Made by a program: the position numbers and the translations under genes. DNA of 64,000 bases from a virus: the IMG/VR virus record IMGVR_UViG_3300032315_000979, positions 1-64,000 of that record, one strand, 5' to 3'. Numbering within the stretch: position 1 is the first letter of the stretch; every line of letters starts with the position of its first letter. The notes beneath the pieces were generated by a model. That model was not told the origin of the DNA, did no database searches, and saw only the letters and a program-made list of their open reading frames with translations. Shown here piece by piece: positions 7,357-21,988 of this stretch.

Positions 7357-8021
7357 AAATTGTTGTAGTAAACGCTCAATAAAGGTGTAAAATCTATTAA
7401 ATACATAGGTGTTTTATACGAAAACCATACAAAATAAGGTAAATATACCCTATTTCCTTAGGATTTTTATATGCGACATACAATGAGACCCTATATAGCC
7501 CCTTATAAAGGTTCTAGAAAGATAAATATATATATTCCCCAAAATTTATATCATCATCTATGTAAATTATTTAGTGTGATATATCAAGAGGATATTAGTG
7601 AACAATTATATCCAAGAATTTGTAATTGAATTCGGGGGTGAATTAGGTCTGCCTAATGGATCAGGCATTAGCTTGAAATTACAATGATGTAAGACCTCAG
7701 ATAACTAGTTGAATAATAGATGTCCCATAAAGGTATTGGTTTATCTAAAAGTTTAGATAAATCATTACCTATTTTTTTATACGCACTCCATGTAATATTA
7801 CAAGGGCGTATTATTACAATGGTGTGTAATATTACAGGGCAACAAACGGATAAAAAAATGGGTAAAACAATAGATCACTGATCTAATATTTTTCAGGTTA
7901 ATTTTTGGGCAAGGTTGGTTTTCATTGGATTAGACGATAGAATGGTTAACGAAATGAGAGATTAATTTCTCAAATAAATAAATAATCAAATAAACAATTA
8001 AACAAAGAATAGGACAAAACA

Positions 8022-8357
8022 TTGGAACAAGAAATGCAATTTGAATTTATTAACGAAAATGAAATGGAATTCGCTAAGAGAGGGCGTAAATCTAATCTTG
8101 ACGAAAAGTTTGTTAATTCAGTTAAAGAAATGATCAAAAAAAATGATTCGGTTGCGAAAAAGCAATTTGTTATCATTTCAAGTTTGGCAATTCCTTCGGA
8201 TTTGACTGACATTAAGGATATCAAAAACTATAAGGCTAAAGTTGCAGCAATGCTTCGTACATTGGCTAAGAATTTGGGTTATGGTTCAGAAATCCGTTGG
8301 CATAAGGAAACAGTTCCAGCTATTCGTTTTACTTCAGTTAAGGGTAAAACTAAATAA
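8022..8357 (+). CDS. small basic RGRKS-motif protein, paralog 1 (putative DNA-binding)
   Basis: FEFINENEMEFAKRGRKSN shared with 8828-9124 and 9692-9973. Confidence 0.8.
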   Translation: MEQEMQFEFINENEMEFAKRGRKSNLDEKFVNSVKEMIKKNDSVAKKQFVIISSLAIPSDLTDIKDIKNYKAKVAAMLRTLAKNLGYGSEIRWHKETVPAIRFTSVKGKTK

Positions 8358-8385
8358 ATAGCTAAAACTATAGTCTCTCATTTCA

Positions 8386-8421
8386 ATAAGGCTTAGGGTA
8401 AAACCTAAGCCTTATTTTTTT
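8386..8421 (+). terminator. intrinsic terminator
   Basis: AATAAGGCTTAGG-GTAAAA-CCTAAGCCTTATT followed by T-run. Confidence 0.8.
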
Positions 8422-8549
8422 GTCTAAAAATAAGGTTGTCATAAAGGTTCACATAAAGATTTGAATTAGAATTCGGAATTGGATTTGGTCTAATGTAAAG
8501 ATACAGATAAGCATACTCAATTAGATAAAGGTTTCGTGTAATATTACAT

Positions 8550-8585
8550 GGGTGTAATTTTTTGAATAGACCAAAAATTACACCC
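8550..8585. repeat. cassette-boundary hairpin H1
   Basis: GGGTGTAATTTTT-N10-AAAAATTACACCC. Confidence 0.9.
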
Positions 8586-8827
8586 GCCCGCTGTAATATT
8601 ACAGGAAAGCCAGGCAGCTTCTGTAACTTTACAGCCGTGTAACATTAGGGTAGGCAAAAAAAATATCCCCAACAAGCGGGGTTATTCAGACAACGCTGTA
8701 ATCAGTATGCCTACTGTTACAGGGCTGGAATATTATGCCCGCTTGCTGGGGTTCTGTTGCCAAGCGTAATTTTAGACGCTCCGTACTTACCGTCAGACGC
8801 TCAGAGTTGAGTTACTATGGTGTAACT

Positions 8828-9124
8828 TTACTTGCGCTTTTCGGTGCGAACCACTTGCGGTACGCCTGATGACGACCACATGATGGTTACTGTAACATTA
8901 GCCTGCTTGCTAGCAGAACGGATAATAGCACCGTAACGGGCTTTATCAGTCTTTGCTTTGGCAGACTTCATGTCAACCGAAAAGGAAGTCAACTTGAGCG
9001 CTTGCTTTGGTGTAAGTTTACGCAACGCCTCAACAAGTTGAGGCGGGACGGTTGACTTACGACCACGGCTAGTAAACTCAAGTTCGTTTTCACCAATGAA
9101 CTCAAACGAGAAATCGTCAGCCAT
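8828..9124 (-). CDS. small basic RGRKS-motif protein, paralog 2
   Basis: FEFIGENELEFTSRGRKSTVPP...W...GVPQVVR; AAGGA RBS. Confidence 0.85.
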   Translation of the reverse strand: MADDFSFEFIGENELEFTSRGRKSTVPPQLVEALRKLTPKQALKLTSFSVDMKSAKAKTDKARYGAIIRSASKQANVTVTIMWSSSGVPQVVRTEKRK

Positions 9125-9522
9125 TAGTTACATCCTTGTAAGTTTTGGTTGGCAATAACACTATGCCTAGTGTTACCTCGGTGTAATTTTTGGAAGGTAC
9201 ACCACCTACCCATCCCCAACTTTGGTGCGGACACCGTGAGCCTACAAGTCTAAAATTACCGACTTGCCGTACCTCACGGCTGGGGTCAACCGCTAACCAA
9301 AAGTGTAGCCAAACCCAAACCCAAAAACTCAGCATTTCTAATATTACAGAACTTTTTTTCGGGTCTATTTGGGGACATAATCCCCTAAAGTTACATCTAA
9401 TGTTACAGAAGCTTATACCGTAAAGATAAAGGTCTAGAATTACATTCCTGTAAAGTTACAGAGAGCCCAGGCGGTGTTCCGTAATGTTACTAAAAATAGT
9501 GAGAGCTCCTGTAATATTACAA

Positions 9523-9560
9523 CGGGTGTAACTTTTAGTGGAGAGCAAAAGTTACACCCG
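9523..9560. repeat. cassette-boundary hairpin H2
   Basis: CGGGTGTAACTTTT-AGTGGAGAGC-AAAAGTTACACCCG. Confidence 0.9.
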
Positions 9561-9691
9561 CTCGCCTGTAATATTACACGGACTTTGGGCAAAAAAAATT
9601 ACAACCATGTAATTTTACTACTGTGTAATAATAGAGAGCCTGTCTCGCAGGGGTTACGAGACAGGCTACTCTTACGGGCGTGTAACTTTAG

Positions 9692-9973
9692 TTACTTGCG
9701 CACGATCTGCGGCACGCCATCTGGCGACCAGAGAATTTGCACCTTGACCTTCGCCTGCACACTTGCCGAGCGAATGGTTGCGCCGATCCGAGCCTTGTCG
9801 GTCTTGACCGTTGCTGACTTGACATTGACCTTCAAGGCTGACAAGCGAACGCCCTTGCCCTTTGGCATGTCTTTGATCGCCTGCACGAGTGCTGGTGGAA
9901 CATTAGACTTGCGACCTCGTTGGGTGAATTCCATTGAATTTTCGTCAATGAATTCAAATTCAAACTCTGACAT
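9692..9973 (-). CDS. small basic RGRKS-motif protein, paralog 3
   Basis: FEFIDENSMEFTQRGRKSNVPP...WSPDGVPQIVR; AAGGA RBS; upstream TTGCAA-17-TATCGT promoter. Confidence 0.85.
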   Translation of the reverse strand: MSEFEFEFIDENSMEFTQRGRKSNVPPALVQAIKDMPKGKGVRLSALKVNVKSATVKTDKARIGATIRSASVQAKVKVQILWSPDGVPQIVRK

Positions 9974-10334
9974 GGTTTATCCTTAGTGATCTCACCCCGC
10001 AGGGTGTGTCTTGGCGTTATTGCCTTGACATGAATAACGATAAGGCTTAGGGATAAGAATTGCAAGGTAATCAGATCGTAACAATGCCCGCAAACCCAAT
10101 GCCCATATGAGATATATCACCGACATTGTTACAATATGGTTACAACTCTAAAGTTACACGAGAAACTCTAAAATTACATGATCGGGGCTAATGTTACACA
10201 GAGCGGCGAGATCGCCCAGATCGGGGGTCGTAAAGTTACACGAGTGTAAAGTTACATTCTCATAAAGGTGAGATCAGGTAATGTTACATCCATAAAACAT
10301 ACTAAACTAATGATACACACGGGTAATATTACAT

Positions 10335-10372
10335 CTGGTGTAAGTTTTAGTGGAGCGCAAAACTTACACCAG
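10335..10372. repeat. cassette-boundary hairpin H3
   Basis: CTGGTGTAAGTTTT-AGTGGAGCGC-AAAACTTACACCAG. Confidence 0.9.
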
Positions 10373-10438
10373 CCCCCAAGCTCTGTAATTTTACAGCCTG
10401 GTAACTTTACTGGTGTGTAACTTTACTCGTGTGTAACT

Positions 10439-10924
10439 TTACACGAGCCGTTCGCTGTATTCTTGGCTATGCTCTAGAGCCCATGAGAGACCACCCTCTT
10501 TACCATAGACCCAATCGGTCTCCATGTCGGTCTCAATTTCTAAATCGGGCGTAGTGTAGAAATCGTTATAGACAGGCGTATTCTCTATTGCTAAAGTTAC
10601 GGTAGGGTAATTTTCCCTAACCTTGTCAAAGAAATCCCGCACCGCATTATCCCCGATAGATTTCAGCAAGGCTAATTGACAAGCGAAAATGTCGGGCTCT
10701 GTAATTTTAGGCAGGATTAGTTGCCCACCCTTACCCCTACCCGTAGGCAATAAATTACCGTAAATATCGGTAGGGAATACATCTGTCAAAACTTCCTTGA
10801 CTGTAACTTTACGCAGACCAAACCATTTGGCAATATCTGCAGGCGGTACGCCATCATGATACATCTCGCAGATATCATCTACAAGGTCGGCTGTAAGTTT
10901 AGACACTCTCATTTTTGTCTCCAT
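10439..10924 (-). CDS. N-terminal HTH domain protein
   Basis: KLTADLVDDICEMYHDGVPPADIAKWFGLRKVTVKEVL is a typical HTH. Confidence 0.7.
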   Translation of the reverse strand: METKMRVSKLTADLVDDICEMYHDGVPPADIAKWFGLRKVTVKEVLTDVFPTDIYGNLLPTGRGKGGQLILPKITEPDIFACQLALLKSIGDNAVRDFFDKVRENYPTVTLAIENTPVYNDFYTTPDLEIETDMETDWVYGKEGGLSWALEHSQEYSERLV

Positions 10925-11243
10925 GTAATTTTACCCTTGAGCGGGTTTGGTTTGGTTACAGCGTTCAGTAATTTTACAGTAGAGTTTTCACCTTTGGTTA
11001 GTCCTGGCGAAATCTCTTTGTATTCCTTTGGTGTAACTTTAGATAGGCTTTGTAATATTTCTAGTATGTGTCGTAATTTCATAAGCTTATTCTAGCCTAT
11101 TCTCGTGTAATGTTAGAAGTAATTTTAGGCAATTTTTGAGGTATATAAAGGGTAAGTAACATTACTATTACGATAAAACCTGCTCTGTAATATTAGTTTC
11201 ATAAACTTACACTAAACTAATCTTACAAGGGTCTAATGTTACT

Positions 11244-11283
11244 GCGGGCGTAATATTTGGTGAAGCTCAAATATTACGCCCGC
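11244..11283. repeat. cassette-boundary hairpin H4
   Basis: GCGGGCGTAATATTTG-GTGAAGCT-CAAATATTACGCCCGC. Confidence 0.9.
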
Positions 11284-11320
11284 CTGTAATTTTACAGTCC
11301 TGTAATTTTAGACAGAGACA

Positions 11321-11356
11321 AAGAAAAACCCCTGCGGAGGGCGCAGGGGTTTTCTT
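11321..11356 (-). terminator. intrinsic terminator (possibly bidirectional)
   Basis: AAGAAAAACCCCTGCG...CGCAGGGGTTTTCTT. Confidence 0.8.
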
Positions 11357-11370
11357 ACTCGCTTGTAAGT

Positions 11371-11613
11371 TTAGAACTCAGTGAGTATGTCCTCAGGCAA
11401 CTCATCAGTGATATCTCGCTCATCGGCATCGTCAATGTCATCGTCTAACACTTGTGCAAAAATTACACTCATGTCAGGGTCATCGCCATTGTTGTTTTTG
11501 ATAGAACGCAATATTTTACCTAGATGCTCAACGCTCTCGGCTTCATACAGAAAACTATCTGCCCATTCTGCATCGCCTTGCTCAAATTGCCAAGATACTT
11601 CGTAAGTGTTCAT
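11371..11613 (-). CDS. small very acidic protein
   Basis: 80 aa, D/E-rich; AAGGGAG RBS. Confidence 0.75.
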   Translation of the reverse strand: MNTYEVSWQFEQGDAEWADSFLYEAESVEHLGKILRSIKNNNGDDPDMSVIFAQVLDDDIDDADERDITDELPEDILTEF

Positions 11614-11630
11614 GTAATTTTACTCCCTTG

Positions 11631-11855
11631 TTATTTTTGGGTCTCGCCCAAGATTTGTGAAAATGAATGTTCGCTATCTTCAATTTGTGTTGTTGTGTTT
11701 AGGACACCACAAAACTTACACACGGCATGGATTTGGGTAATTGTAAACTTACCATGCTGTACTTCTACGGAATTGCTACCGATGAATGAATACTCATGCG
11801 GTAGGTTATCCCGATAATTTATGCGGTTCCTAATCTTACAAGTGAGATATGACAT
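11631..11855 (-). CDS. small hypothetical protein (C, H, CxxC)
   Basis: GAAGGG RBS, leader hairpin, -10 TACGAT upstream. Confidence 0.65.
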   Translation of the reverse strand: MSYLTCKIRNRINYRDNLPHEYSFIGSNSVEVQHGKFTITQIHAVCKFCGVLNTTTQIEDSEHSFSQILGETQK

Positions 11856-12029
11856 TGTGTAACTTTACCCTTCGGTCTAATGGCTGGCATTATTGCCAAC
11901 ACAAACATCGTAGCAAATTTTCGTGTAATAGTAGAGGTAATTTTAGATTATTTTTTAGTCAAAAAGCGGTAAGTAATTTTACGATCATAAACATATATTA
12001 AACTAAAGTTACAGCTCCCTAATGTTACA

Positions 12030-12069
12030 GCAGGTGTAACTTTTGGAAGAGCGCAAAAGTTACACCTGC
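12030..12069. repeat. cassette-boundary hairpin H5
   Basis: GCAGGTGTAACTTTTG-GAAGAGCG-CAAAAGTTACACCTGC. Confidence 0.9.
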
Positions 12070-12105
12070 CTGTAATTTTACAGCCGTGTAATTTTAGACC
12101 AGGCA

Positions 12106-12141
12106 AAGAAAAAGCCCCCGCTTTTGGCGGGGGCTTTTCTT
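12106..12141 (-). terminator. intrinsic terminator (possibly bidirectional)
   Basis: AAGAAAAAGCCCCCGC...GCGGGGGCTTTTCTT. Confidence 0.8.
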
Positions 12142-12155
12142 ACTTGCTTGTAACT

Positions 12156-12248
12156 TTAGTCTCGCTCAAAGTACCAAGCAAGTGCTACGGGGATAATTAT
12201 CCATGACCAAAGAATTACAACCCCGTAGATGATTTTGATGATGCTCAT
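12156..12248 (-). CDS. 30-aa membrane peptide (not in ORF track)
   Basis: MSIIKIIYGVVILWSWIIIPVALAWYFERD; upstream CAAGGGAGTAAAATTAC identical to that of 11613. Confidence 0.7.
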   Translation of the reverse strand: MSIIKIIYGVVILWSWIIIPVALAWYFERD

Positions 12249-12269
12249 GTAATTTTACTCCCTTGTAAT

Positions 12270-12626
12270 TTATGAATTGGCTAATTCTGCGATTAGTTGG
12301 CGAAATGCGTCAGTTGGCAAAGACAAGTCCTGCCCGACAATGTGCGAAACTTTTTCGCTCATGCGGTCAAGGCTAATCACTAGGTCAAGTGAATTGATTA
12401 ATACGGTGGATACCCAGTCACGATTATCCATAGGCATATCGTCTGCTGTAACTTTACCCTCCAGTAATTTTGCAAGGTTGGTAACGCTATCGGCATAGTC
12501 GCAACCGTCAGTCACATAGTCAAAGTCAATTTCCAGTATGTCAAAAGTTACAGTAGTGAAAATTTCTGTAACGGTGCAAAGGCTCTCATTTAGGTAGAGC
12601 ATTTTCTTTTGGAATTCGGTGGTCAT
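12270..12626 (-). CDS. acidic hypothetical protein
   Basis: GAAGGG RBS, leader hairpin, TGATATGCT extended -10. Confidence 0.75.
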   Translation of the reverse strand: MTTEFQKKMLYLNESLCTVTEIFTTVTFDILEIDFDYVTDGCDYADSVTNLAKLLEGKVTADDMPMDNRDWVSTVLINSLDLVISLDRMSEKVSHIVGQDLSLPTDAFRQLIAELANS

Positions 12627-12830
12627 GTAATTTTACCCTTCGGATTATTGGTCGGCATTATTACCGACACAAACAGCATATCAAATCCTCGTGTAATAAT
12701 AGAGGTAATTTTAGGCTATTTTTGAGCCTATTTTCGGGGTTGGTAAGATTAGATTTCGTAAAGTTACAAGCTTCTAAAGTTACAAGTAGAAATATGTACT
12801 CCACATAAAGGTAGAGTGTCTAATATTACA

Positions 12831-12870
12831 GCAGGTGTAAGTTTAGCATAGCGCCTAAACTTACACCTGC
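12831..12870. repeat. cassette-boundary hairpin H6
   Basis: GCAGGTGTAAGTTTAG-CATAGCGC-CTAAACTTACACCTGC. Confidence 0.9.
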
Positions 12871-13084
12871 CTGACTGCCTCATAAAGATTTACTAAACTA
12901 ATATTACAGCACAGTAACATACACAGTGGTGTAATGTTACACGGTATACCATGTATGCCCATGTAATATTAGAGTGAATAATTATGCAAGGTAATGCATA
13001 ACTAATTAGTTGCGCCTGGTCTTACATGGTGGTAGTATTTGGTTGTTGGGCAATTCCGCTCAACCAGTAATGAAAGGTAGTCCA

Positions 13085-13540
13085 ATGGCTACAAGTAAGG
13101 CGAAAGCCAAAGTGTCGGTGAAAGTTGCAGTGTCGGCTACTGCAAATAAGGTAGACAAAGCCCGTACCACTAATGCCCGCAAAGGCGTAAAGCAACACTA
13201 TTCCGATAGCAAAGCCGTTGCGTTCTGGCAACTCTTAGCGTTGGTAGTCAAGTCACCACTAATCGCAAAGGACTTGCGTGTTGCAACTAAGAACAACGCT
13301 CAAGCCCGTAGGCAATGGTGCATAGACAATGGTGCAGTAGTGGTATCTCGTGCAGATGTCACACACAAGGTACAAGGCGATAGACCAGACAATGCAGTGA
13401 GGGCAAGACTTATCTCACTTGCCAAAGTAGACGCAAGCGCAAAGCGTGTCGGCTATATCCGTGTGCTAGACGCATACACTGCAAGTCGTAATCCAAAGCA
13501 TGCAGACATAGACAAGGTATATCTATATCGCATTGCGTAA
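13085..13540 (+). CDS. highly basic protein, paralog A of 13949-14428
   Basis: ATG 13085 after GAAAGG RBS; DLRVA.KNNA.ARR.WC, RPDN.VRAR, GY.RVLDAYTA, KVY.YRIA shared. Confidence 0.85.
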   Translation: MATSKAKAKVSVKVAVSATANKVDKARTTNARKGVKQHYSDSKAVAFWQLLALVVKSPLIAKDLRVATKNNAQARRQWCIDNGAVVVSRADVTHKVQGDRPDNAVRARLISLAKVDASAKRVGYIRVLDAYTASRNPKHADIDKVYLYRIA

Positions 13541-13562
13541 CGCTTAGGCGTTGCAATAAAGA

Positions 13563-13592
13563 TACGGGGCATAGATGCCCCGTATTTTTTTT
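13563..13592 (+). terminator. intrinsic terminator
   Basis: TACGGGGCAT-AG-ATGCCCCGTA + T8. Confidence 0.85.
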
Positions 13593-13948
13593 GTATGCGT
13601 TGTTGCGTAAACACAACACTGATTACTTGTTGCATAAAGACAACAAGTGCCCATGTAATATTACATCATATACTAAATATGGTACTCGTTGCATGTATGC
13701 AACGGCGGGTGCGTCTTCTACGCTAGCTGGGAAGCTCCACCCGCCCAACCATGCTAAAAACATTCAAACCCCTCGCATGGTTGGGTTGGTGCAAGCCAGC
13801 TCAGGGCGGGGGGTCGCCCTGAGCCGAACCTGAACGGGGTTCGCATAAACGCTTTCATAAAGAGACACACACACTAAAAATGAGACCAACTCGCCGTAAG
13901 GTTGGCTGGGTGTTTGGGGGGGGTTGCCCCCCCCCCGAACCTATCGGA

Positions 13949-14428
13949 TCAAGCGATCCGATAGACATACACCTTTTGGCTGTCGGGGTGTGTCGGGTTT
14001 TTCTTGGCGGTGTAAGCGTCAAGCACTCGGACATATCCAACCTTTTTGGCGTTCGGGATTACCGAGCGTAGGGAATGGATCCGAGCCCGAACGGAATTGT
14101 CAGGTCGCTCGGCTGGCGTAGCCTGCCCAGCCTTCACGCCGTCAATTTTCTGAACGGCGAGCCAATCAACCTTCACAGCCTTATTCATGACACACCATGA
14201 ACGGCGAGCGCTGGCGTTATTTTTGCTGGCGACCCGTAGATCCTTGTCAATGATTTTTTGCCCTGAAACGCTGGCGAGCAAACCGATCAACAATTCCGCA
14301 GGCTTATCTGTGTAGAATTGCTTGACCCCTGCCGTAGCGTTCTTGGTGTTTTTTGCCGTGATCTTGGTGATCTCGGTTTTTGCCGAGACCGTAGCCTTGA
14401 CACTAGCCTTCACTTTTTTCGTTGCCAT
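13949..14428 (-). CDS. highly basic protein, paralog B of 13085-13540
   Basis: Same motifs; GAAGGGG RBS; convergent with paralog A. Confidence 0.85.
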   Translation of the reverse strand: MATKKVKASVKATVSAKTEITKITAKNTKNATAGVKQFYTDKPAELLIGLLASVSGQKIIDKDLRVASKNNASARRSWCVMNKAVKVDWLAVQKIDGVKAGQATPAERPDNSVRARIHSLRSVIPNAKKVGYVRVLDAYTAKKNPTHPDSQKVYVYRIA

Positions 14429-14731
14429 TTCTGACCCCTTCTATCTTGGGGGATCCCGTTGATCCCCGCTAATAGAAACAATACTGGAACATTACAGAAA
14501 ATCCAAATCATTAGATCCCCGCAAACCCTTATGGAATAAGGGTTTCATAAAAAGATCAAAAAAAAGATCAAAAAATTGCGGGGAATTGGATCAGATCGGG
14601 CATTGACCCTACCGAACATAGGTTCGCCCGTAGGGAAATAGCATAGCATTACCCTCTTGGATTATATACTCAATTTTTCTAAAAAATGGCGTGGGCGGGA
14701 AATGGGCGGGAGCTGGTTTAAAATGCGGGAG

Positions 14732-14770
14732 AATAGAAAAGAGACCGCTTTGCGGGCGGTCTCTCTTTCT
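14732..14770 (-). terminator. intrinsic terminator
   Basis: GAGACCGC-N7-GCGGTCTC followed by TTTTCT on the - strand. Confidence 0.7.
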
Positions 14771-14774
14771 TCTC

Positions 14775-14886
14775 AGTGTGTTAACATCCTTGCGGATGGT
14801 TACTATAACGGTCCTAAGATAGCGAAATTCGTTCTGCTCTGGTGATAGTGCAGATCACGATTGCCGCTTGACACTTTTAGGGTGCC
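14775..14886. ncRNA. candidate small RNA containing a 23S rRNA H69-H70 segment
   Basis: 14799-14830 matches GTAACTATAACGGTCCTAAGGTAGCGAAATTC at 30/32; bracketed by a - strand TGATATAAT and a terminator. Confidence 0.6.
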
Positions 14887-14898
14887 ATAAGTATTATA

Positions 14899-15075
14899 TC
14901 ACTTCTTAGAGTTACGGTAAAATCCACTGCCTTTGAGTTCTATCATCGGCGGGGAATAGATTTGTTTTAGCGTAGCGTTGCACTCGGGGCAAACATCTAT
15001 CTTCCTATCTTCCAGAATGGATCTCATCTCAGTGTGGGTGTGTCCATTAGAACATTTGTAGTCATACTGTGGCAT
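14899..15075 (-). CDS. FmdB-family zinc-ribbon protein (not in ORF track)
   Basis: MPQYDYKCSNGH...CPEC...LKGSGFY. Confidence 0.8.
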   Translation of the reverse strand: MPQYDYKCSNGHTHTEMRSILEDRKIDVCPECNATLKQIYSPPMIELKGSGFYRNSKK

Positions 15076-15128
15076 AGCTTATATATTATACACGGATGTG
15101 TATCCTTGTATACATGGTACAATAGGTT

Positions 15129-15542
15129 ATGTACGAATATCGTGTGAAGAAGGTTTTGAAGATTGTTGACGGAGATACCATTGATGTGGACATTGATTTG
15201 GGGTTTGACATCTCCTATACGCAAAGAGTTAGACTGGCGGGAATTGATACCCCTGAATCTCGCACAAAAGACGCACGAGAGAAGGCTTTGGGGCTTGAGG
15301 TAAAAGACAGACTCAAGAAAGCCATTGATGCCGCCAAAGATGTAATCATTGTAACCGAAAAGCCAGACAGCACCGAAAAGTACGGGCGCATTCTGGGTTG
15401 GGTATATCTTGACAAATCTTCCAAGTCAATCAACGAACAACTCATTGAAGAAGGTTACGCTTGGGGATACATGGGCGAAACCAAGATCAAAGACTTTGAT
15501 GCTCTGCTTGCAAAGCGAGAATCCTTTTCCAAGAAGAAGTAG
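15129..15542 (+). CDS. thermonuclease (SNase-like)
   Basis: VDGDTIDV, RVRLAGIDTPE, KYGRILG motifs; leaderless. Confidence 0.9.
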   Translation: MYEYRVKKVLKIVDGDTIDVDIDLGFDISYTQRVRLAGIDTPESRTKDAREKALGLEVKDRLKKAIDAAKDVIIVTEKPDSTEKYGRILGWVYLDKSSKSINEQLIEEGYAWGYMGETKIKDFDALLAKRESFSKKK

Positions 15543-15730
15543 TCACTCGTCAAAAGAGTTGCGAAAGCTATTGCGAACTCTATGCTGGATAAGGGATTTC
15601 TGACGATGCCTTTGGCTTAGTCCGATTTTTGCCACCCACCCCAATAAGATTATTCCAAGAATGTAGTATGCCATATCCGCTAAGAATAGCAGGCATAATT
15701 CAAATAACCACCATATCCAAAAAAAATAAT

Positions 15731-16291
15731 TCATCTGTATGTTTGGAAGTCAATATTGACAACCAACCTAAACGGAGAGCGAACGGGATTTGAAGCGGCA
15801 TGGATGTTGCTACCGTCAAAGATGATAGCTCGCCCTGGCTTTGGATATACGGTGTCTTGGAGCTCGTGTGCTTCGTTAAAAAAGTAAGTTGGTCCATCTG
15901 AGTCGTTTATGTAATATAGAAGAACTTTATGATCAACGGGCTCGCCATTGTCGTACTCTAAATCAACATGGGGGACTTGGGACTCGTAATGCATCATTGG
16001 GGGGTAAGGAGAGGTAACATTCACTTTAGCCCGCAATAGGTTGATATTTCCAAACTTATCTGCTAGATTACCTACAAGCTTCTGAATTGCTGGAAGGTGA
16101 GTTGAGGCAATGTCTGATTCCGACTCATACAGGTGATGAGACATCTGCATCGGTGCGTGTGACCACTTACTATCTTCATGGTAAATATGACTGCGGTAGA
16201 AGCGGTAAGGAACTTTGGGGTTAGTAAAATAATCGTAAAGATACGACTGTTCTTCTATGGATACATAGTTATCTACGATTTGCATTTGCAA
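15731..16291 (-). CDS. 2OG-Fe(II) oxygenase-like protein
   Basis: PHVD...LYYINDSDGPT...H...R.V.NI. Confidence 0.8.
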   Translation of the reverse strand: MQMQIVDNYVSIEEQSYLYDYFTNPKVPYRFYRSHIYHEDSKWSHAPMQMSHHLYESESDIASTHLPAIQKLVGNLADKFGNINLLRAKVNVTSPYPPMMHYESQVPHVDLEYDNGEPVDHKVLLYYINDSDGPTYFFNEAHELQDTVYPKPGRAIIFDGSNIHAASNPVRSPFRLVVNIDFQTYR

Positions 16292-16947
16292 TTCTTACAA
16301 CCTTTCTTACAACCTTCTTCACCGCCAATATGAATCAGTGTCCCGTTTGGAACAGCACGACCAATTGTGCCTTGAAAAAAGCTGTTAATAGAAATTGCAA
16401 TTCTTGTTACATCTTCAGTTACAGTTGGAACAAAATGAATTAGCTCTGACGGGAATAGAACAATATCACCAGGTTTTGCAACAGCTGCGTATGTATCTGA
16501 GTTATAGTAGTTCTCTTCTCTGTTATTTAGACTCCATCGCTTAACACCTGGTCTAAAGAACATAGTGCCATCTATACTGGCTAATGAAACATATAAAACA
16601 CCTGAAACAACACTGTTCTGATGTGCATGTGGTGGGTGATGATCCCCTTTTTCCAATTTTGTAATCCAGGATGATGTCAATCTCAATCTAACATCATCTG
16701 TTGTATCATAGACACTCTTTAGATATGTATCTAAATTAATTTGAATTCTATCTTTGATATCTGAAAGAATTGGGTTATCAAGAATAAGTCTATCATCTGT
16801 TACCCGAACACCATCAAACTGCTGCGTATTGTTTGCTTGCTCTATTAGAAAATCCATTTCTTCTTGTGTGAAGTCTCTACCAATTGATGACTTGTACACA
16901 GGTGTTCCAAATGGGTTATATACTATTGCTTCCATGTTTGTTTCCAT
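16273..16947 (-). CDS. putative 2OG-Fe(II) oxygenase (TIGR02466-like)
   Basis: HPPHAHQNSVVSGVLY...LFPS.LIH.V...RIAISIN; start moved to 16947 (AGGAG RBS) because the track start lies inside tRNA-Asn. Confidence 0.8.
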   Translation of the reverse strand: METNMEAIVYNPFGTPVYKSSIGRDFTQEEMDFLIEQANNTQQFDGVRVTDDRLILDNPILSDIKDRIQINLDTYLKSVYDTTDDVRLRLTSSWITKLEKGDHHPPHAHQNSVVSGVLYVSLASIDGTMFFRPGVKRWSLNNREENYYNSDTYAAVAKPGDIVLFPSELIHFVPTVTEDVTRIAISINSFFQGTIGRAVPNGTLIHIGGEEGCKKGCKNCKCKS

Positions 16948-16958
16948 ATTTCTCCTTT

Positions 16959-17034
16959 TGGCTGGCGAGGTAGGGTTTGAACCTACGACCCAGGGATTAA
17001 CAGTCCCTTGCTCTGCCAACTGAGCTACTCGCCA
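16959..17034 (-). tRNA. tRNA-Asn(GTT)
   Basis: Cloverleaf, anticodon loop CTGTTAA, encoded CCA. Confidence 0.93.
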
Positions 17035-17119
17035 TTGTATTACTTAATTAACAGTATAGCAATTGTAATTGCATGAAGTGCAAAATACACTGCGTGTGTA
17101 ATCTTATCTTGTTTTGACA

Positions 17120-17809
17120 TCACACCTCTCCTCTAAAGACAGCCCTGTTGCCATCTCCAATAATTTTGTATTGAATATTTTTTAATCCAGCATCAGTCAT
17201 TATACCAGTAATAGCCAGCGGGTTCATTCCCCAGTAGTCATTAACTTCACTTCCATTATTCCTACCAGAGTAGTATCTAGCTGCTGGGAAATCCACATCA
17301 ATCATATCTATGTGTGATTCAATAATTAGGTATCCCTTACACATTGACTTGGCTATCTCAATATATTGAACTGGATTTTTAGAAAGGCATACGAGGCATA
17401 AAAGTAAAACATAATCAAATTTACCAAGATGATCTGAGCTTAGATTTTCAATGTTTGATATTACTTTTTCAACTTTTGAATTAAGATATTTATGAGCAAA
17501 ATCAAATCCTTTATCCTTTGACCAAAAATCAGATTCTTTTTCCCATATATATTTATCTACTGCTACAACACGACTAGCATTTCTTTTTTCGCATTCAAAA
17601 GAATAATAACCATCCCAGCAACCAATATCTAAAACAGACTTTCCTGACAGATCACTTGGAATAAAAATGTCCTCTAGATTATTCTGAAGTAGATAATTGG
17701 CACCTGGTGTTTGATATTCACCAAGGTCAATTTTGTGGTACCAGTTGATATTGTTTATTTCCTCTTGAGGATTATTCAGAAACGATGTCATAATCATATC
17801 TATCGTCAT
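17120..17809 (-). CDS. class I SAM-dependent methyltransferase (CmoB/DUF1698-like)
   Basis: WYHKIDL, GKSVLDIGCWDGYYSF. Confidence 0.8.
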   Translation of the reverse strand: MTIDMIMTSFLNNPQEEINNINWYHKIDLGEYQTPGANYLLQNNLEDIFIPSDLSGKSVLDIGCWDGYYSFECEKRNASRVVAVDKYIWEKESDFWSKDKGFDFAHKYLNSKVEKVISNIENLSSDHLGKFDYVLLLCLVCLSKNPVQYIEIAKSMCKGYLIIESHIDMIDVDFPAARYYSGRNNGSEVNDYWGMNPLAITGIMTDAGLKNIQYKIIGDGNRAVFRGEV

Positions 17810-18407
17810 CTGATGTTATCCACTTATCCCCATCCTCTACATCCCAGACTTTTGTGTTGATCAATCTTTCAATTAATCTTTCGTTTTTCTTTGTTGTATA
17901 AGAAGGATCCCACAGCCTAACCCTGTTATTTGGCTGAATAGCAAAGTTGCCATCTTTTCTGTTTATTACATGACCACACTTGTGCTGACCTGGATTAATT
18001 GAATAACCAGTGTTTATAATATTTGAATCTGGCGTGTGCCAATCTAGTGTAAACATGTATTTGCCATCAACTTTATTTTTACGCCTATCAAGGTAAGTCA
18101 TAGACATACCACGCATGTGTTCAAAAGTTGTCACTGTAATATGGGAAGAGAAACTGTTCCACATAACTAAATCATGTAGATCAACCTCGGGGCTGTCTAA
18201 GGATGAGCAAAAGGCATTTATTGGAGCTCTCCACCAAACACCACCATCTTCCATTAAAAAATGAAACACTGGTGCTCTATCTGGTATTGATGCTACTCCA
18301 AAAATTACACATGGAAATTTAACATCATGGCTATCAACTTGATTTCTCAAGAAGTTACCACGCACATAACATTCAATTGGTGGAATATTTGCATTTAGTT
18401 CTGGCAT
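17772..18407 (-). CDS. conserved phage hypothetical protein
   Basis: LNANIPP, YMFTLDW, HKCGH, GNFAIQPNNR; function unknown. Confidence 0.7.
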   Translation of the reverse strand: MPELNANIPPIECYVRGNFLRNQVDSHDVKFPCVIFGVASIPDRAPVFHFLMEDGGVWWRAPINAFCSSLDSPEVDLHDLVMWNSFSSHITVTTFEHMRGMSMTYLDRRKNKVDGKYMFTLDWHTPDSNIINTGYSINPGQHKCGHVINRKDGNFAIQPNNRVRLWDPSYTTKKNERLIERLINTKVWDVEDGDKWITSDDDRYDYDIVSE

Positions 18408-18429
18408 ATTATATTGCTCCTTATATCAG

Positions 18430-18501
18430 AGCCCCCTCTCGGACTTGAACCGAGGACCGCTTCATTACAAGTGAAGTGCTCTACCGCTGAGCTAAAGGGG
18501 C
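18430..18501 (-). tRNA. tRNA-Thr(TGT)
   Basis: Cloverleaf, anticodon arm CTTCA-CTTGTAA-TGAAG; CCA not encoded. Confidence 0.92.
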
Positions 18502-18502
18502 G

Positions 18503-19102
18503 TTATTCATATCTTATTTTACTTGATAAGAAATACTTTACAATGCCGTAATCTGGATGGGCAATATCTGCAGATACCAAAGTGTAGTCATATAATATAT
18601 TATCAATTCTTCTTCTGTTGTATGCTGAGTGGTACTCAATCAAATAAACATCTGGTTTGATAACCATATTTTCTAGTATTTCAATTTCAGCACCTTCGGT
18701 ATCAATTTTCACAATGTCTGCTTTTGGCAGTAAACTTGCTGCTACAACAGAAACATTTTCGCCCTCTTCAACTTGCTCAGCGCCATGCTGGAAACTGCAC
18801 TCACCAACATTGTGAGCTCCATAATACATTCTTCTTTGTTCTGTTTTTGAACCTATTGCAAGGTTCATAACCATGATGTTTTCAAGATCTTTTGTATTTT
18901 TTTTTAAATACTCAAAATTATTTTTAATTGGTTCATATGAATAGATTTTTGAATTATTCCATCTTTTATTAGCCCATAAACAAAATCCACCAACATTACC
19001 GCCGATATCCAGAATCACTGGATTTTCTTTTTCATACGGAATGTCATATTCCCCTTTAAATATTTTTTCAATATGGGGAGTCATGTTTTTTGGAACTTGC
19101 AT
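18503..19102 (-). CDS. FkbM-family methyltransferase
   Basis: ILDIGGNVG, YSYEP, VKIDTEGAE. Confidence 0.85.
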   Translation of the reverse strand: MQVPKNMTPHIEKIFKGEYDIPYEKENPVILDIGGNVGGFCLWANKRWNNSKIYSYEPIKNNFEYLKKNTKDLENIMVMNLAIGSKTEQRRMYYGAHNVGECSFQHGAEQVEEGENVSVVAASLLPKADIVKIDTEGAEIEILENMVIKPDVYLIEYHSAYNRRRIDNILYDYTLVSADIAHPDYGIVKYFLSSKIRYE

Positions 19103-19605
19103 TAAGACTTCTTCCTTATTTGTTTTTTTACAACTTTCTTTACATTTTTTTTCTGAGCTCTCGGCTTAGGCATATCAGGAACTGGCATCCACTTACCCAT
19201 TGATTCAGCAAGAGCGTCAATAATTCTTTCACACTCGTAATCAATCAAGGATGTTACCATTTTATGAACAGCTTTGCTTTTTTGATCATCCGCATCTGGC
19301 TTTAACATTTCATTAACAGCTTCTTCAATTACTGCCATATGACAATGCAACAACTCGTGAACAATTGTTGCACGAACATCTTCTGGTGTATCTTTTCTAA
19401 AATCTTTATGTAAATACATTTTTGCAAGATGTTGACCATGAACAACTTCTGTCTCACCAAGCGCATCAGGGCTACAGGGCTTTGCTTGCACAAGAATTGT
19501 CCAGTGAGATAAACCCATCATATTCTTAAGCTTGTTTACATAGCGAATAACCCAGGCATCCATCTCTTCAACTTTTGCAGGTTGTCTTGCCATTTTATAT
19601 ACCAC
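19102..19605 (-). CDS. HEXXH zincin-like metallopeptidase domain protein
   Basis: TIVHELLHCH followed by a downstream E. Confidence 0.6.
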   Translation of the reverse strand: MVYKMARQPAKVEEMDAWVIRYVNKLKNMMGLSHWTILVQAKPCSPDALGETEVVHGQHLAKMYLHKDFRKDTPEDVRATIVHELLHCHMAVIEEAVNEMLKPDADDQKSKAVHKMVTSLIDYECERIIDALAESMGKWMPVPDMPKPRAQKKNVKKVVKKQIRKKS

Positions 19606-20108
19606 AGTTGTCCTTTACAGCTTTTCTTTCTTCATCATCTGCAAATAGACGAACAGCGTAGATACATGGATCCCCGCCCTCTTCCCATTCCACATCCTCA
19701 TCATGCGTGGTTGGAACACCATCATGTGTTGAACACACTGGTCTACTGATCCAGCCCTTATCTATTCCAGTAGTAATCCATTGCTCAAAATTTACTTCCA
19801 TTGTTCCAAAAAATGGATTAAAATTTTTTTCTGGGTCATTAAAATTATCTGTCATTTTTCCTCCATACAAAAGCGTTTCTTAAATAAACAATACTATATG
19901 CAAATGATCCAAGTATGAAACCATATTGCTTTGTGATTACTGCGTAGTATGTCCAACAACATTCTACACAAATCATCCACAGAAAAGCTTCCCATTTTTT
20001 TTTACCAATGAAAAACATTCCTATAATCCCCATAGCTGCTAACAGCCATGACCACGCCTGATTGCTCACGGAGTTTCCATTGGAAGAAGAAACTCTCCAC
20101 GAATCCAC
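19595..20108 (-). CDS. hypothetical protein (19595-19870) and small PnuC-like membrane protein (19845-20108)
   Basis: C..HDG.P motif in the first; three hydrophobic segments in the second. Confidence 0.55.
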
Positions 20109-20707
20109 ATTAATGCAATCGCAGCATAACCGCCAATATCAAGCAATGTGTCATAAACGCTTTCATCTGAGACTGCATTAACAACTCCTTTTGGTTTTGA
20201 TAAAAGATTTTCTAATCTTGCAACTTTATCATGCAATCTGATTGTTAAGCCATTAAGACCAAATCTTTCAATATTTTTTGGACCGTAATCTTTTTGTTTT
20301 TTAATTAAAGTAGATATAAGCATTTCTTTATCTAAAGAAATACCATTTATCTTACAGTAATGCAAAGCGGCAGCACCAATCATTGACCATAACCAACTAT
20401 GGTACTGCCGACAATACATTAACTTATCTTCATTACTGTCTTTGTAATAATGTGGATCACTTTCCCATGTCTTATTGTCAATGCACCAATCAATAATATT
20501 TTTAATATTACTAACATGATCGCCTGACAAATTAATATTCAAGTTATCCCAGTAGAAATTACTCATCCGTGATTTCCAAGAGGTACCACATTCAGTAGTC
20601 ATGCCAGTTATATCAAACCTATCTACGAACCAAAACAAATCTTTTACGGCTTCTTCCGCACAGAATTCCCATGATTTCATATTTCGCACAACTACCAATT
20701 TTTCCAT
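20066..20707 (-). CDS. DUF1599 / nucleotide-modification-associated domain protein
   Basis: KKQKDYG..NI...GLTIRLHDKVARL.NL...DTLLDIGGYA. Confidence 0.75.
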   Translation of the reverse strand: MEKLVVVRNMKSWEFCAEEAVKDLFWFVDRFDITGMTTECGTSWKSRMSNFYWDNLNINLSGDHVSNIKNIIDWCIDNKTWESDPHYYKDSNEDKLMYCRQYHSWLWSMIGAAALHYCKINGISLDKEMLISTLIKKQKDYGPKNIERFGLNGLTIRLHDKVARLENLLSKPKGVVNAVSDESVYDTLLDIGGYAAIALMWIRGEFLLPMETP

Positions 20708-20709
20708 AA

Positions 20710-21219
20710 TTAGCTATTTGCTCGCTCAACCTTTGGATCTACAATTTCAAAATGTCCACGCTTTACCTTCTTGAAGTAAGAACGATTTGCATTGTAGAAG
20801 TTGTAAAAAGTTGGAAGTGAGATTTCTACATCTGTTGCAAGCTGCACAGGTGTAATAACCTTACCAACATTTCCACTAAGGAAACTAACGATATTATCTT
20901 GCTTTGACTTTCTTCCACTCACTTGATTTACCACCTTTTCTTTGAACTTAAAAAGCTCAGCGTATGTTGAATATGATTTTTCATCAATGTTGTAATACTT
21001 GATGGTCTTTGATGGAGACCAACCTTTATAGTGACCGTAAATAACAGAAGCGGCTTCTCTATGGTCTGAAACTGGGATCAAGCCAATAAGCTTGTCAAAA
21101 ATTACACTGAACTCTTTTGTTGCAGTAAATCCAGAATCTTCTTCGTTGATGTTTTCTTCTGACATGTATAGCCTTTCTCTAGGTATGAAGAGACTATCAT
21201 TTTTAGAAAACAAAATCAA
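20710..21219 (-). CDS. putative HTH DNA-binding protein
   Basis: ITPVQLATDVEISLPTFYNF wHTH-like C-terminus. Confidence 0.5.
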   Translation of the reverse strand: MILFSKNDSLFIPRERLYMSEENINEEDSGFTATKEFSVIFDKLIGLIPVSDHREAASVIYGHYKGWSPSKTIKYYNIDEKSYSTYAELFKFKEKVVNQVSGRKSKQDNIVSFLSGNVGKVITPVQLATDVEISLPTFYNFYNANRSYFKKVKRGHFEIVDPKVERANS

Positions 21220-21315
21220 CGGGATAAATGATTATTTTAAAAATAAAAACAGGCATCCTCACACATTTATAATAACCTTTCGGAATACTATAAACCTGAA
21301 GATGCCCGTTTAAAT

Positions 21316-21987
21316 TTATTTTTTAGTTGATACTTTTTTAACAGCTTTAGTTGTTACTGGCTTTGTTTCTTGTTTTGGATTATGTGACTCAATGTGTTTA
21401 TCAAGTTTGTTTTCTACAACCGCAACATCACTATGAAGATCTCTTAGTAAAGAAGCGACTACGCCATGATCGTTTTTGTTTTCTACTCTTCCTTTTTGTA
21501 CCAAAGCTACCAGGATTCCCCCGACAGCAGCAATTAGAGCAACAGTTACGGCTTCCATCAACCCTCACTATTATGCAAGCAAAAAGCTTGCAATATCCTC
21601 TACTGACATATCAAACTTGCCGAACTCTTCTTCAAAAGAAGAAAGTGCCGTAACAAGATCGCTCTTCTTAACTGTTTTTGGGTCAAGAGGGACTTCTTTT
21701 GTGCCTGATGTTTTTCCAGCACCAGATGTTGGTGTTGATGCAGAACCAGCTGTTGGGACTGAACTCACCTTCTTTTCTGGATCAAGAGGAACTTCATTAA
21801 TCATTCCCTTGATAATATCAACTTGCGAATTATGCCATGCGGCAGCCTTAATGTGATCTTGCATTTGTTCTGCGGCAGCTTTTGCAGCAGTTTCGTGCCA
21901 AGACTTCATTGAGTTGTGGTCAGAGACCATTTTCTTCATATTGTCTTTCATATATTCTCCTTGTATTAAAGATATACTAACTAGCAT
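21316..21987 (-). CDS. membrane-anchored small protein (21316-21561) and hypothetical protein (21571-21987)
   Basis: N-terminal TM plus coiled coil in the first; duplicated EVPLDP in the second. Confidence 0.55.
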
Positions 21988-21988
21988 A

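Follow-up and report, generated by a model that had tools for sequence, protein, structure and literature searches.

Palindromes built from a clustered 10-bp site separate the units of a small minus-strand gene array in a siphophage genome

Five small gene units on the minus strand of a siphophage genome are delimited by six palindromes, giving n+1 hairpins for n units. The hairpin arms are copies of a 10-bp site, GTAA-NN-TTAC, a point absent from the original prediction. Since this site is repeated across the whole region, the arms point to a DNA-binding protein over a structure-specific recombinase. The palindromes are tentatively read as boundary elements of a co-regulated, early-type array, putatively bound by a dimeric protein and also supplying homology for recombination; this reading is given somewhat less than an even chance. 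The palindromes most likely represent neither an integron-like nor a DNA-entry system. The window, which is the whole stretch of DNA analysed, comprises 64,000 nucleotides, and the genome searches cover the complete 108,687 bp.

Hairpins: The palindromes, which belong to neither strand in particular, lie at 8550..8585 (H1, arms of 13 bp and a loop of 10 nt), 9523..9560 (H2, arms of 14 bp), 10335..10372 (H3, 14 bp), 11244..11283 (H4, 16 bp), 12030..12069 (H5, 16 bp), and 12831..12870 (H6, 16 bp). Loops in the window measure 8-10 nt and all arms are perfectly paired, so that both the positions and the pairing of 13-16 bp arms agree with the original prediction. Folded as single-stranded DNA, H1-H6 reach -11 to -19 kcal/mol, with z values of -5.9 to -8.9. 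Each palindrome consists of two inverted copies of the 10-bp site, ends in G+C-rich clamps, which are foreign to the ordinary site, and is flanked by extra site copies. GTAA-N20-TTAC with complementary arms is confined to H1-H6 across the complete genome, and a covariance model built from 29 variants returns exactly these six places. The 20 nt between GTAA and TTAC, earlier described as exact, are true of this genome, whereas N19 and N18 occur in relatives. In the distant relative L047/L048, every hairpin consists of two complete inverted 10-bp sites 16 bp apart, which makes the exact 20 nt a lineage-specific feature; the same 16 bp is the commonest tandem-pair spacing in the present genome.

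Gene units: The phage, an uncultured siphovirus from freshwater, has Streptomyces phages as distant relatives. The array is the only minus-strand block in its otherwise one-directional genome. Unit 5 (12156..12626) comprises a 118-aa ORF (12270-12626) and a 30-aa hydrophobic ORF (12156-12248), for which a family search gave no match. Unit 4 (11371..11855) contains a 74-aa ORF (11631-11855) and an 80-aa ORF (11371-11613), and unit 3 (10439..11082) a 57-aa ORF (10909-11082) and a 161-aa ORF (10439-10924), the latter with a weak helix-turn-helix-like match at its N-terminus. Unit 2 (9692..9973) and unit 1 (8828..9124) each encode one protein of the RGRKS-motif family, of 93 and 98 aa, respectively. 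A third RGRKS paralogue (8034..8357) lies on the plus strand, convergent on the array, with two 10-bp sites ahead of it at 7792 and 7826. No clear fold or family was found for the RGRKS family, the basic paralogue pair, or the 161-aa helix-turn-helix-like protein.

Terminators and promoters: Four minus-strand terminators accompany the units. Three came from a terminator scan, at 11324..11354 (unit 4, 41 bp before H4), at 9637..9667 (unit 2, 76 bp before H2), and as a terminator-like hairpin with a T run behind unit 1 (8667..8681). The fourth, that of unit 5 (12110..12138), was recognised by reading the sequence as a G+C stem followed by a minus-strand T run; transcription would reach it 40 bp ahead of H5. 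Neither approach found a terminator for unit 3. The canonical terminators stand 40-76 bp from H2, H4, and H5, and the family hairpins were therefore rejected as the terminators. The best sigma-70-like consensus match for unit 5 (10/12) lies at 12657..12684 and a similar match for unit 4 at 11889-11916, both on the minus strand and each immediately downstream of two conserved 10-bp sites with 12-bp spacing. The count of promoter-like matches shows no enrichment relative to shuffles (18 versus 15.5 expected), and the promoter positions are thus tentative. The unit make-up proposed earlier stands for the five minus-strand units and their terminators, but less so for the promoters. Each hairpin stands in an inter-unit spacer, behind one unit's terminator and ahead of the following unit's promoter region. 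At the ends of the array, H6 lies upstream of the first unit and has a full 10-bp site in each arm, and H1 lies 3' of the last unit, with no minus-strand gene further downstream.

The 10-bp site: A motif count gives 72 copies of [G/C]TAA-NN-TTA[C/G], irrespective of strand, at 7792..13664. These 72 copies in 6 kb (7.7-13.7 kb) compare with 19 in the remaining 103 kb, and exact GTAANNTTAC has 37 occurrences where 1.08 are expected. The most frequent spacing is 16 bp, and the central NN is strand-biased (TT 17, AA 2). Copies are located behind terminators, beside every hairpin, and immediately upstream of promoter-like sites, as well as in the interval from RBS to ATG and in gene interiors. Four tandem sites with exact 16-bp spacing (10385..10442, on neither strand in particular) lie right behind the stop codon of unit 3, where the relative L015 has three. 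Three tandem sites also occur at genome positions 97412-97449, in the 420-bp gap heading the long plus-strand gene block. Across relatives, the core of the site is 98.3% identical and its free NN positions 88%, compared with 89.6% for other intergenic DNA and 91% for coding DNA. Sites within genes are 97.3% identical.

Covariation and loops: The original prediction that the arms differ yet stay paired is borne out by the 29 distinct hairpins of the window and its relatives. Stem cells are paired in 99.5% of cases, compared with 86.9% in shuffles; changes on both sides occur at 6 of the 14 stem pairs, and none of 500 shuffles reached the observed covariation score. Compensated pairing extends to positions that the 10-bp site leaves free (pairs 5/40, 8/37, 13/32, and 14/31). 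The 12 inner stem pairs show no G-T pair in any variant, which fits DNA pairing on both strands. Four relatives (L015, L018, L026, and L030) carry in H2 a different, again palindromic sequence in place of the inner 20 nt, precisely from GTAA to TTAC. The loops are the least conserved part, with 81% identity among relatives compared with 95% for the arms. The central 8-mers, earlier described as related and pointing the same way, are hypervariable and have in common no more than a plus-strand bias of 70% purine and a loose AGCGC on that strand. The covariance model scores the plus strand 8-30 bits above the other.

Relatives: All relatives have a hairpin at each junction, even those whose proteins have diverged by about 50%, with exactly one per inter-unit spacer and at a conserved position within it. 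Cassette order is constant in every relative seen, and neither reordering nor inversion was found in about 20 related contigs. What differs is the content, as whole units or genes are lost, gained, or replaced. Whole-unit loss or gain is seen in L013/L018, L047, and L009. Unit 3 is entirely missing from L013, L018, and L047, and in L013 and L018 the H4 at its right is lost along with it. The 57-aa ORF of unit 3 is missing from L001, L005, and L028; this indel runs from one of the 10-bp sites to a degenerate sequence that resembles the site. L001 and L008 lack the 74-aa gene of unit 4 and carry a divergent allele of the 80-aa gene. Repeat copy number varies among relatives, and their divergence is mosaic, unit by unit. 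The idea of cassette shuffling is thus supported as regards a modular array with loss, gain, and replacement of whole units, but not as regards order. Breakpoints had been expected at the 8-nt cores. The single whole-unit junction mapped exactly, that of L013/L018, falls instead inside a shared 14-bp site, CTGTAATTTTACAG, 12 bp to the right of the hairpin. It sits within about 190 bp of 75% homology, and therefore fits homologous recombination.

That junction also weighs against site-specific cassette recombination, in which an unrecognised recombinase would excise and insert units at attC-, lox-, or FRT-like sites. The n+1 hairpins, the whole-unit losses and gains, and the swap of the H2 inner segment exactly between its half-sites would suit such a system. 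However, searches of the complete genome detected neither a recombinase of the tyrosine or serine type nor a Y1 (HUH) transposase, so the enzyme sought since the original prediction did not appear; searches for Viral_Rep and GPA-type Rep were likewise negative, with positive controls that scarcely scored. Partner sites of the lox/FRT type require matching cores, whereas the putative cores here, the loops, differ among copies and evolve fastest. The fixed order and the units' own promoter-like sites and terminators argue in the same direction, and this explanation is considered improbable. Little probability is likewise given to an RNA-level element acting as a read-through 3'-end stabiliser, an RNase III-type processing site, or a back-up terminator, as in the T7 early region. 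The hairpins are directly downstream of each unit with long, stable stems, H3 follows the unit for which no terminator was found, and H4 and H5 have weak terminator-like scores on the plus strand. Nevertheless, on reading the sequence, the minus (sense) strand has no U run behind the stems, canonical terminators precede H1, H2, H4, and H5, and H6 lies upstream of the first unit. The lack of G-U among the inner pairs is unusual for stems selected as RNA, and all Rfam families were below threshold.

A structure-dependent element, in which extruded cruciforms or one-strand hairpins act as promoters, priming or origin signals, topological barriers, or DNA-entry pause sites and the 10-bp sites are accessory, is unlikely, even though several features speak for it. 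These are the compensated pairing at site-free positions, the en bloc palindromic replacement in H2, the stability in single-stranded DNA, the plus-strand purine bias and model preference, and the absence of G-T pairs. In contrast, H1 has no downstream gene, and a promoter role therefore does not suit every copy; the loops evolve fastest, and template-switch correction within palindromes can also keep arms perfect without any function. Searches of the genome found no sigma factor and no T7-type RNA polymerase, the latter search having no positive control. Hairpin promoters of the N4 virion RNA polymerase have stems of 5-7 bp and loops of 3 nt and lie directly upstream of transcripts. They resemble the present elements as DNA hairpins in an early region, and their function needs extrusion, but here the stems are longer (13-16 bp), as are the loops (8-12 nt), one copy has no gene behind it, and a phage RNA polymerase was not detected. 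It is also doubtful, to a high degree, that the palindromes are functionless inverted duplications of the 10-bp site, with intramolecular template switching or mismatch correction preserving their perfect pairing. Every arm is a site copy, the loops look unconstrained, and a "collapsed" palindrome, GGTGTAA-TG-TTACAC, occurs at about 12925-12945. Against this stand the one palindrome per spacer at a conserved place, its persistence at every junction in divergent relatives, and the clamp that ordinary sites lack.

Among known systems, attC sites share a hairpin element defined by structure over sequence, with one per cassette junction. They differ in that no integrase was found here, the arms are perfect without extrahelical bases, cassettes have their own promoters and terminators, no reordering is seen, and the mapped junction is outside the hairpin. 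The T5 injection-stop (iss) region consists of a single long untranslated segment, located in the terminal repeat and containing DnaA boxes (bioRxiv 10.1101/866236), whereas the present repeats alternate gene by gene. Stoperators of the cluster A mycobacteriophages L5 and Bxb1 are asymmetric sites of 13-14 bp, distributed genome-wide in temperate phages, where a monomeric immunity repressor binds them (PMC9283540, PMC6550527). Many copies of a short repressor-type site within and between genes, the orientation bias relative to transcription, and the actinophage affinities of this phage are in line with them. In contrast, the site here is near-palindromic, its copies crowd into 6 kb and one further small cluster, the search for an integrase was negative, and pairs able to form hairpins are not a feature of stoperators.

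The array also resembles PeSL, the promoter-early stem-loop regulatory cassettes of T4-type phages (Arbiol et al. 2010, PMC2839356; Comeau et al. 2014, PMC4122927). In both, small genes of unknown function occupy a plastic region, and each gene has on its flanks a composite intergenic repeat that combines a stem-loop with a host-type promoter. Indels and replacements among relatives with breakpoints in the repeated element, and the use of the phage's own homologous recombination without a dedicated recombinase, are further common features. However, the PeSL stem-loop is a terminator and its repeat a promoter consensus, whereas here the hairpin and the canonical terminator are distinct elements. 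The hairpin arms covary rather than following one consensus and are built of a 10-bp site with about 70 copies, some inside genes. PeSL phages are also T4-type myoviruses, unlike this siphovirus.

In the preferred reading, the palindromes would be boundaries between five autonomous transcription units of early type, arranged in tandem. A putative dimeric, sequence-specific DNA-binding protein, of phage or host, would occupy roughly 70 sites, with the palindromes as its dyad-symmetric paired sites, and would co-regulate the whole array through shut-off or insulation of units. The binding, its regulatory effect, and the early timing of the array are what we infer. The operator model leaves unexplained the perfect arm-to-arm covariation of the free NN positions and of the G+C clamp, the one-strand purine bias of the loops, and the plus-strand preference of the model. 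The ability to form hairpins or cruciforms may be actively kept, through selection or arm-to-arm correction. In a second, partly shown role, the repeated boundary sequences would supply short homology. The genome has a RecA-like gene, and RecA-type recombination of the phage could use this homology to delete, insert, or replace whole units in a PeSL-like manner.

The six perfect inverted repeats of the original prediction (H1-H6) are present at 8550-8585, 9523-9560, 10335-10372, 11244-11283, 12030-12069 and 12831-12870. Perfect hairpins with arms of at least 11 bp occur at 13 places in the whole genome; these six form a family, and most of the others are terminator-like. A covariance model of 29 distinct variants matches exactly H1-H6 in the whole genome, and its scores are higher on the + strand by 8-30 bits. 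The covariation of the arms is borne out by these variants: 99.5% of the stem cells are paired, 6 of 14 pairs have changed on both sides, one stem pair shows all four base-pair types, and no shuffle or slid register approaches the observed covariation. The arms are perfect in the 29 variants, with G-T pairs confined to the outermost and innermost stem pairs. The stems have 13-16 bp and the loops 8-12 nt, and as single-stranded DNA H1-H6 fold with -11 to -19 kcal/mol (z -5.9 to -8.9). The distance of exactly 20 nt between GTAA and TTAC holds in the phage's own lineage, while N19 and N18 are found elsewhere, so the hairpin geometry is lineage-dependent; the dominance of N20 among the database matches is partly a search bias, since the pattern was fixed at N20. 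The loops retain a bias to purines (70%) on the + strand and, beside the right arm, a loose AGCGC. A reading of this AGCGC as a Firmicutes Chi-like sequence was dropped, the match being inexact. H6 stands before the first unit and H1 after the last, with no downstream gene, and the six palindromes bound five minus-strand gene units. The sequence GGTGTAA-TG-TTACAC at 12925-12945, immediately to the right of one copy of the conserved box described below, equals the outer arms of the family hairpin minus the inner 18 nt; a seventh palindrome in collapsed or ancestral form is a possible explanation.

The arms are not private sequence, a link that the original prediction missed. Each arm comprises a G+C clamp and one copy of a 10-bp site of the GTAA-NN-TTAC type, the loop-side half of which has decayed in the phage's own lineage. 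The hairpins of a more distant relative (contigs L047 and L048), whose proteins of the RGRKS family are about 50% identical, consist of two full 10-bp sites, inverted, 16 bp apart start to start. Tandem sites within the window are most often spaced by this same distance. The form [G/C]TAA-NN-TTA[C/G] has 72 copies in 7.7-13.7 kb versus 19 in the other 103 kb, and exact GTAANNTTAC occurs 37 times versus 1.08 expected. The sites are oriented, the central NN being TT in 17 and AA in 2, and GTAATTTT is found 21 times versus 5 on the opposite strand. A likeness of GTAATATTAC to the geminivirus nonanucleotide was dropped, since the sites lie outside the loops and the searches gave no Rep. The idea that extrusion restores the 16-bp spacing of the flanking sites was also rejected, the hand-computed values of 13, 13, 24, 19 and 19 bp being inconsistent.

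Compared with 15 related contigs, the site core is 98.3% identical and the core of sites within genes 97.3%, versus 88% at the free NN positions, 89.6% in other intergenic DNA and 91% in coding DNA. The identity of the core against this background indicates strong purifying selection on the 10-bp site. The hairpin arms are 95% identical and the loops 81%, the loops being the fastest-changing part. Three tandem sites spaced 14 bp are also present at 97412-97449 of the genome (4413-4450 of L042, a distal piece of the same genome). They lie in a 420-bp gap that runs from a glycosyltransferase-like gene to the start of a long G+C-poor + strand block, and it is possible that they are an operator tying this block to the same regulator.

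The spacers between the units have a common order on the minus strand. The stop codon is followed by a canonical intrinsic terminator (in 4 of 5 units) and then by one to four 10-bp sites, often paired at 16 bp. The family palindrome comes next, with an abutting site and a conserved box. Further sites follow, and in three units they include a pair spaced 12 bp that immediately precedes a sigma-70-like match. The spacer ends with a short leader (carrying a small hairpin), a ribosome-binding site and, in most units, a site directly before the ATG. Each spacer has a family hairpin and a weak promoter-like match, and the conserved repeat consists of the 10-bp site and a separate palindrome. The promoter-like matches are not above shuffle frequency, and for this reason the promoters are putative. 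CATAAAG occurs eight times on the + strand and not on the minus strand of 7726-13856, often within the conserved box (with ACTAAACTAAT) that adjoins the hairpins.

The proteins of the units have no significant match in Pfam or PHROGs. Two of them belong to the RGRKS family, which has four paralogues, each about 95-120 aa long, in which an acidic N-terminus precedes the invariant RGRKS motif. They are encoded at 8034-8357 (+), 8828-9124 (-; 98 aa, unit 1), 9692-9973 (-; 93 aa, unit 2) and, directly after the large terminase gene, at 96027-96389 of the genome (L042:3028-3390). The RGRKS profile matches 104 representative clusters in 1.8 billion proteins; one of these is a protein of 1753 aa in which six stretches match. 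A search of the viral collection did not find one distant member. The structure model of the family (pLDDT 80) has no Foldseek match, and its best VIA Z score is 5.8, to assorted winged-helix-like domains. Right of the array, a convergent pair of basic paralogues is encoded at 13070-13540 (+) and 13949-14428 (-). They have a Lys/Ala-rich N-terminal helix, are present in all relatives and are doubled also in the related contig L004. Their structure model (pLDDT 78) has no match. Atlas searches of the proteins gave scores of at most 0.79, which are leads only, as is a weak match of the basic paralogue to DUF3489 (0.77). Given the lack of a reliable fold or family match for the unit proteins and the basic paralogues, no site binder was found among them.

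The phage genome is a complete record of 108,687 bp with a 123-bp overlap of its ends, and the window is its first 64 kb. The portal protein shares 42-47% identity with that of BillNye-type Streptomyces siphophages, and a tape measure gene of giant size is present. The order of GT, ribonucleotide reductase and portal genes, with a minus-strand block carrying tRNA genes before them, is that of the BillNye left end. Nearly all genes are on the + strand, with the sole exception of a block at 8828-22831, at the left edge of which lies the array. Besides the array, this block contains 2OG-Fe(II) oxygenases, methyltransferases and two tRNA genes. Since its layout mirrors the BillNye left end, the array may be near the physical genome end. 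A staphylococcal-nuclease homologue is encoded just right of the array region (15129-15542, +). The replication genes comprise those for a RecA-like protein (genome 86119-87033, in the replication module), a DnaB-type helicase and a DnaG-type primase. Neither blastn of the array region nor tblastn of the 98-aa protein gave a match among cultured phage records, and the close relatives found are all freshwater metagenome or IMG/VR contigs.

The same system is present in about 20 related contigs. The gain and loss of cassettes that had been anticipated are both found among them, whereas reordering is not, the cassette order being identical in all. The contigs L013, L018 and L047 are without the whole unit of the 161-aa gene and one palindrome. 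In L013 and L018 the join falls in CTGTAATTTTACAG, a shared site of 14 bp; the two spacers are about 75% alike over the surrounding 190 bp or so. This join, the sole whole-unit junction mapped exactly, stands 12 bp right of the hairpin, and the breakpoint is thus outside the hairpin and not at it as had been proposed. A 57-aa ORF is present or absent as a segment that begins at a site copy and ends at degenerate site-like sequence. L001 and L008 lack the 74-aa gene and carry a divergent allele of the 80-aa gene. In L047 the place of the 118-aa gene is taken by a paralogue of the 80-aa gene, and this contig also contains an additional two-gene unit; two novel units occur in L009. Within H2, two groups of relatives have wholly different sequences over the inner 20 nt, bounded exactly by GTAA and TTAC, and each version is palindromic. 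The copy number of the 16-bp tandem sites varies, and the divergence from unit to unit is mosaic. A role of the palindrome boundaries as recombination seams in evolution is partly shown by the junctions among these changes.

Hairpin-pattern matches in bacterial genomes have no 10-bp site field around them and are therefore unrelated. In Methylobacter tundripaludum SV96 (loci L035, L037, L038, L040 and L041) the pattern matched a five-copy repeat with two direct TGTAAATTTACA copies between GGTG and CACC-like ends; having no site field, it is probably an unrelated element. Two back-to-back pattern hairpins at 3242-3318 of L031 (Ga0265780_10031117) were likewise set aside as an unrelated element, their contig having no site field.

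The array differs from integron attC sites in every attC feature tested. The attC palindrome is imperfect, has extrahelical bases and carries the conserved boxes RYYYAAC/GTTRRRY, whereas here the arms are perfect and AAC/GTT is present in some copies only, since the base after GTAA may be any of the four. Integron cassettes are promoterless and share a common promoter, their junctions fall inside attC, and an IntI-type tyrosine recombinase gene is adjacent to the array. In contrast, the units here have terminators, promoter-like sites and conserved leaders, the mapped junction is outside the hairpin with no reordering, and PF00589 has no match. N4 hairpin promoters have a stem of 5-7 bp and a 3-nt loop, lie upstream of early transcripts and are used by the virion RNA polymerase. 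The stems of H1-H6 are far longer and their loops larger, and H1 has no downstream gene. In the genome, sigma-70 region 2 was not found, nor was a T7-type RNA polymerase (PF00940), the latter a weak negative as its control was silent. Stoperators (PMC9283540) resemble the array in having many copies of one site with an orientation bias. They are, however, asymmetric, 13-14 bp long and genome-wide, whereas the site here is a near-palindromic 10-mer with 72 of 91 copies in 6 kb. Stoperators are served by the cognate immunity repressor of a temperate phage; the genome here gave no integrase match (PF00589). The T5 injection-stop region is one long untranslated repeat stretch inside the terminal repeat (10.1101/866236), whereas here the repeats alternate with five coding units. 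A further feature of the T5 type is a fixed position close to the end of the genome that enters first. The closest likeness is to the PeSLs of T4-type phages. These are repeated composites between genes, in which a stem-loop accompanies an early promoter of host type, and circular excision products (mini-circles) are among their features. They also flank uncharacterised small genes in a variable region whose content differs among relatives, with indel or replacement breakpoints within the repeated element (here the 14-bp site and the 57-aa ORF indel). By this analogy the array would work like PeSL cassettes, and the seam role, itself partly shown, fits the PeSL model (PMC2839356, PMC4122927). 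The differences are three: PeSLs belong to T4-type myoviruses and not to a BillNye-like siphophage, the hairpin here is separate from the terminator, and the nature of the repeat is different.

The simplest account of the array is a dimeric DNA-binding protein, as this covers the site field, its conservation, the composition of the palindromes, the pairing rule of 16 bp and the placement of sites around start codons and promoters. Such a protein would recognise the 10-bp site and co-regulate the array, and at each unit boundary it would bind a palindrome as a dyad-symmetric pair of its sites. Early timing, the promoter positions and protein binding are inferred. The reading of the palindromes as protein-bound boundary elements is tentative, with a probability a little short of even. 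A binder alone does not explain the perfect compensation at the free positions of a single site, nor the bias of the loops on one strand; either selection acts also on the formation of a hairpin or cruciform, or correction inside each palindrome keeps its arms identical. A primarily structure-dependent function would draw on the compensation and the strand bias, and is unlikely. Quite doubtful is the reading of the palindromes as boundary elements of a new, structure-encoded class in a dsDNA phage, with an unrecognised phage protein, perhaps of the RGRKS family with its four paralogues, reading the hairpin or cruciform instead of the duplex. With no known recombinase family involved, such a protein would bring about cassette exchange, or would initiate or halt a strand-specific process (transcription, priming or DNA entry, for example).

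Site-specific recombination at the palindromes has unit gain and loss and the exact replacement within H2 on its side, and the position of the mapped junction against it. The tyrosine recombinase or HUH nuclease that was to be sought in the rest of the genome was not found: a search of all 108.7 kb of the complete genome gave no PF00589 match, with controls positive in 14 of 14 genomes, and serine recombinase and the Y1 transposase gave none with good controls. Viral_Rep and GPA Rep also have no match in the genome, a weak negative given weak controls and a silent Viral_Rep control. Such recombination is accordingly very unlikely. An RNA-level role is given a similarly low probability. H4 and H5 alone have weak terminator scores on the + strand; an intrinsic terminator has a U run directly after a G+C-rich stem, whereas on the minus strand none of the six hairpins is followed by a run of T, and separate canonical terminators are nearby. 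Rfam 15 gave no match above the gathering score, the best being terminator look-alikes of at most 37 bits. Arm correction within the palindrome would also suit a functionless by-product, which is very unlikely. The protein-bound boundary element is the reading preferred here.

The early regions of phages have the fastest turnover of anti-host and anti-defence genes. To our knowledge, detailed knowledge of the DNA signals that organise this turnover is limited to T4-type phages, with their PeSLs. The freshwater phage clade described here has one 10-bp site in about 70 copies and, at each gene junction, one covarying palindrome built from this site, which is the new feature. If a binding protein is found, the array would be a compact system for the coordinated control of many promoters, and its hairpin boundaries could be tested as selected for regulation, recombination, or both.
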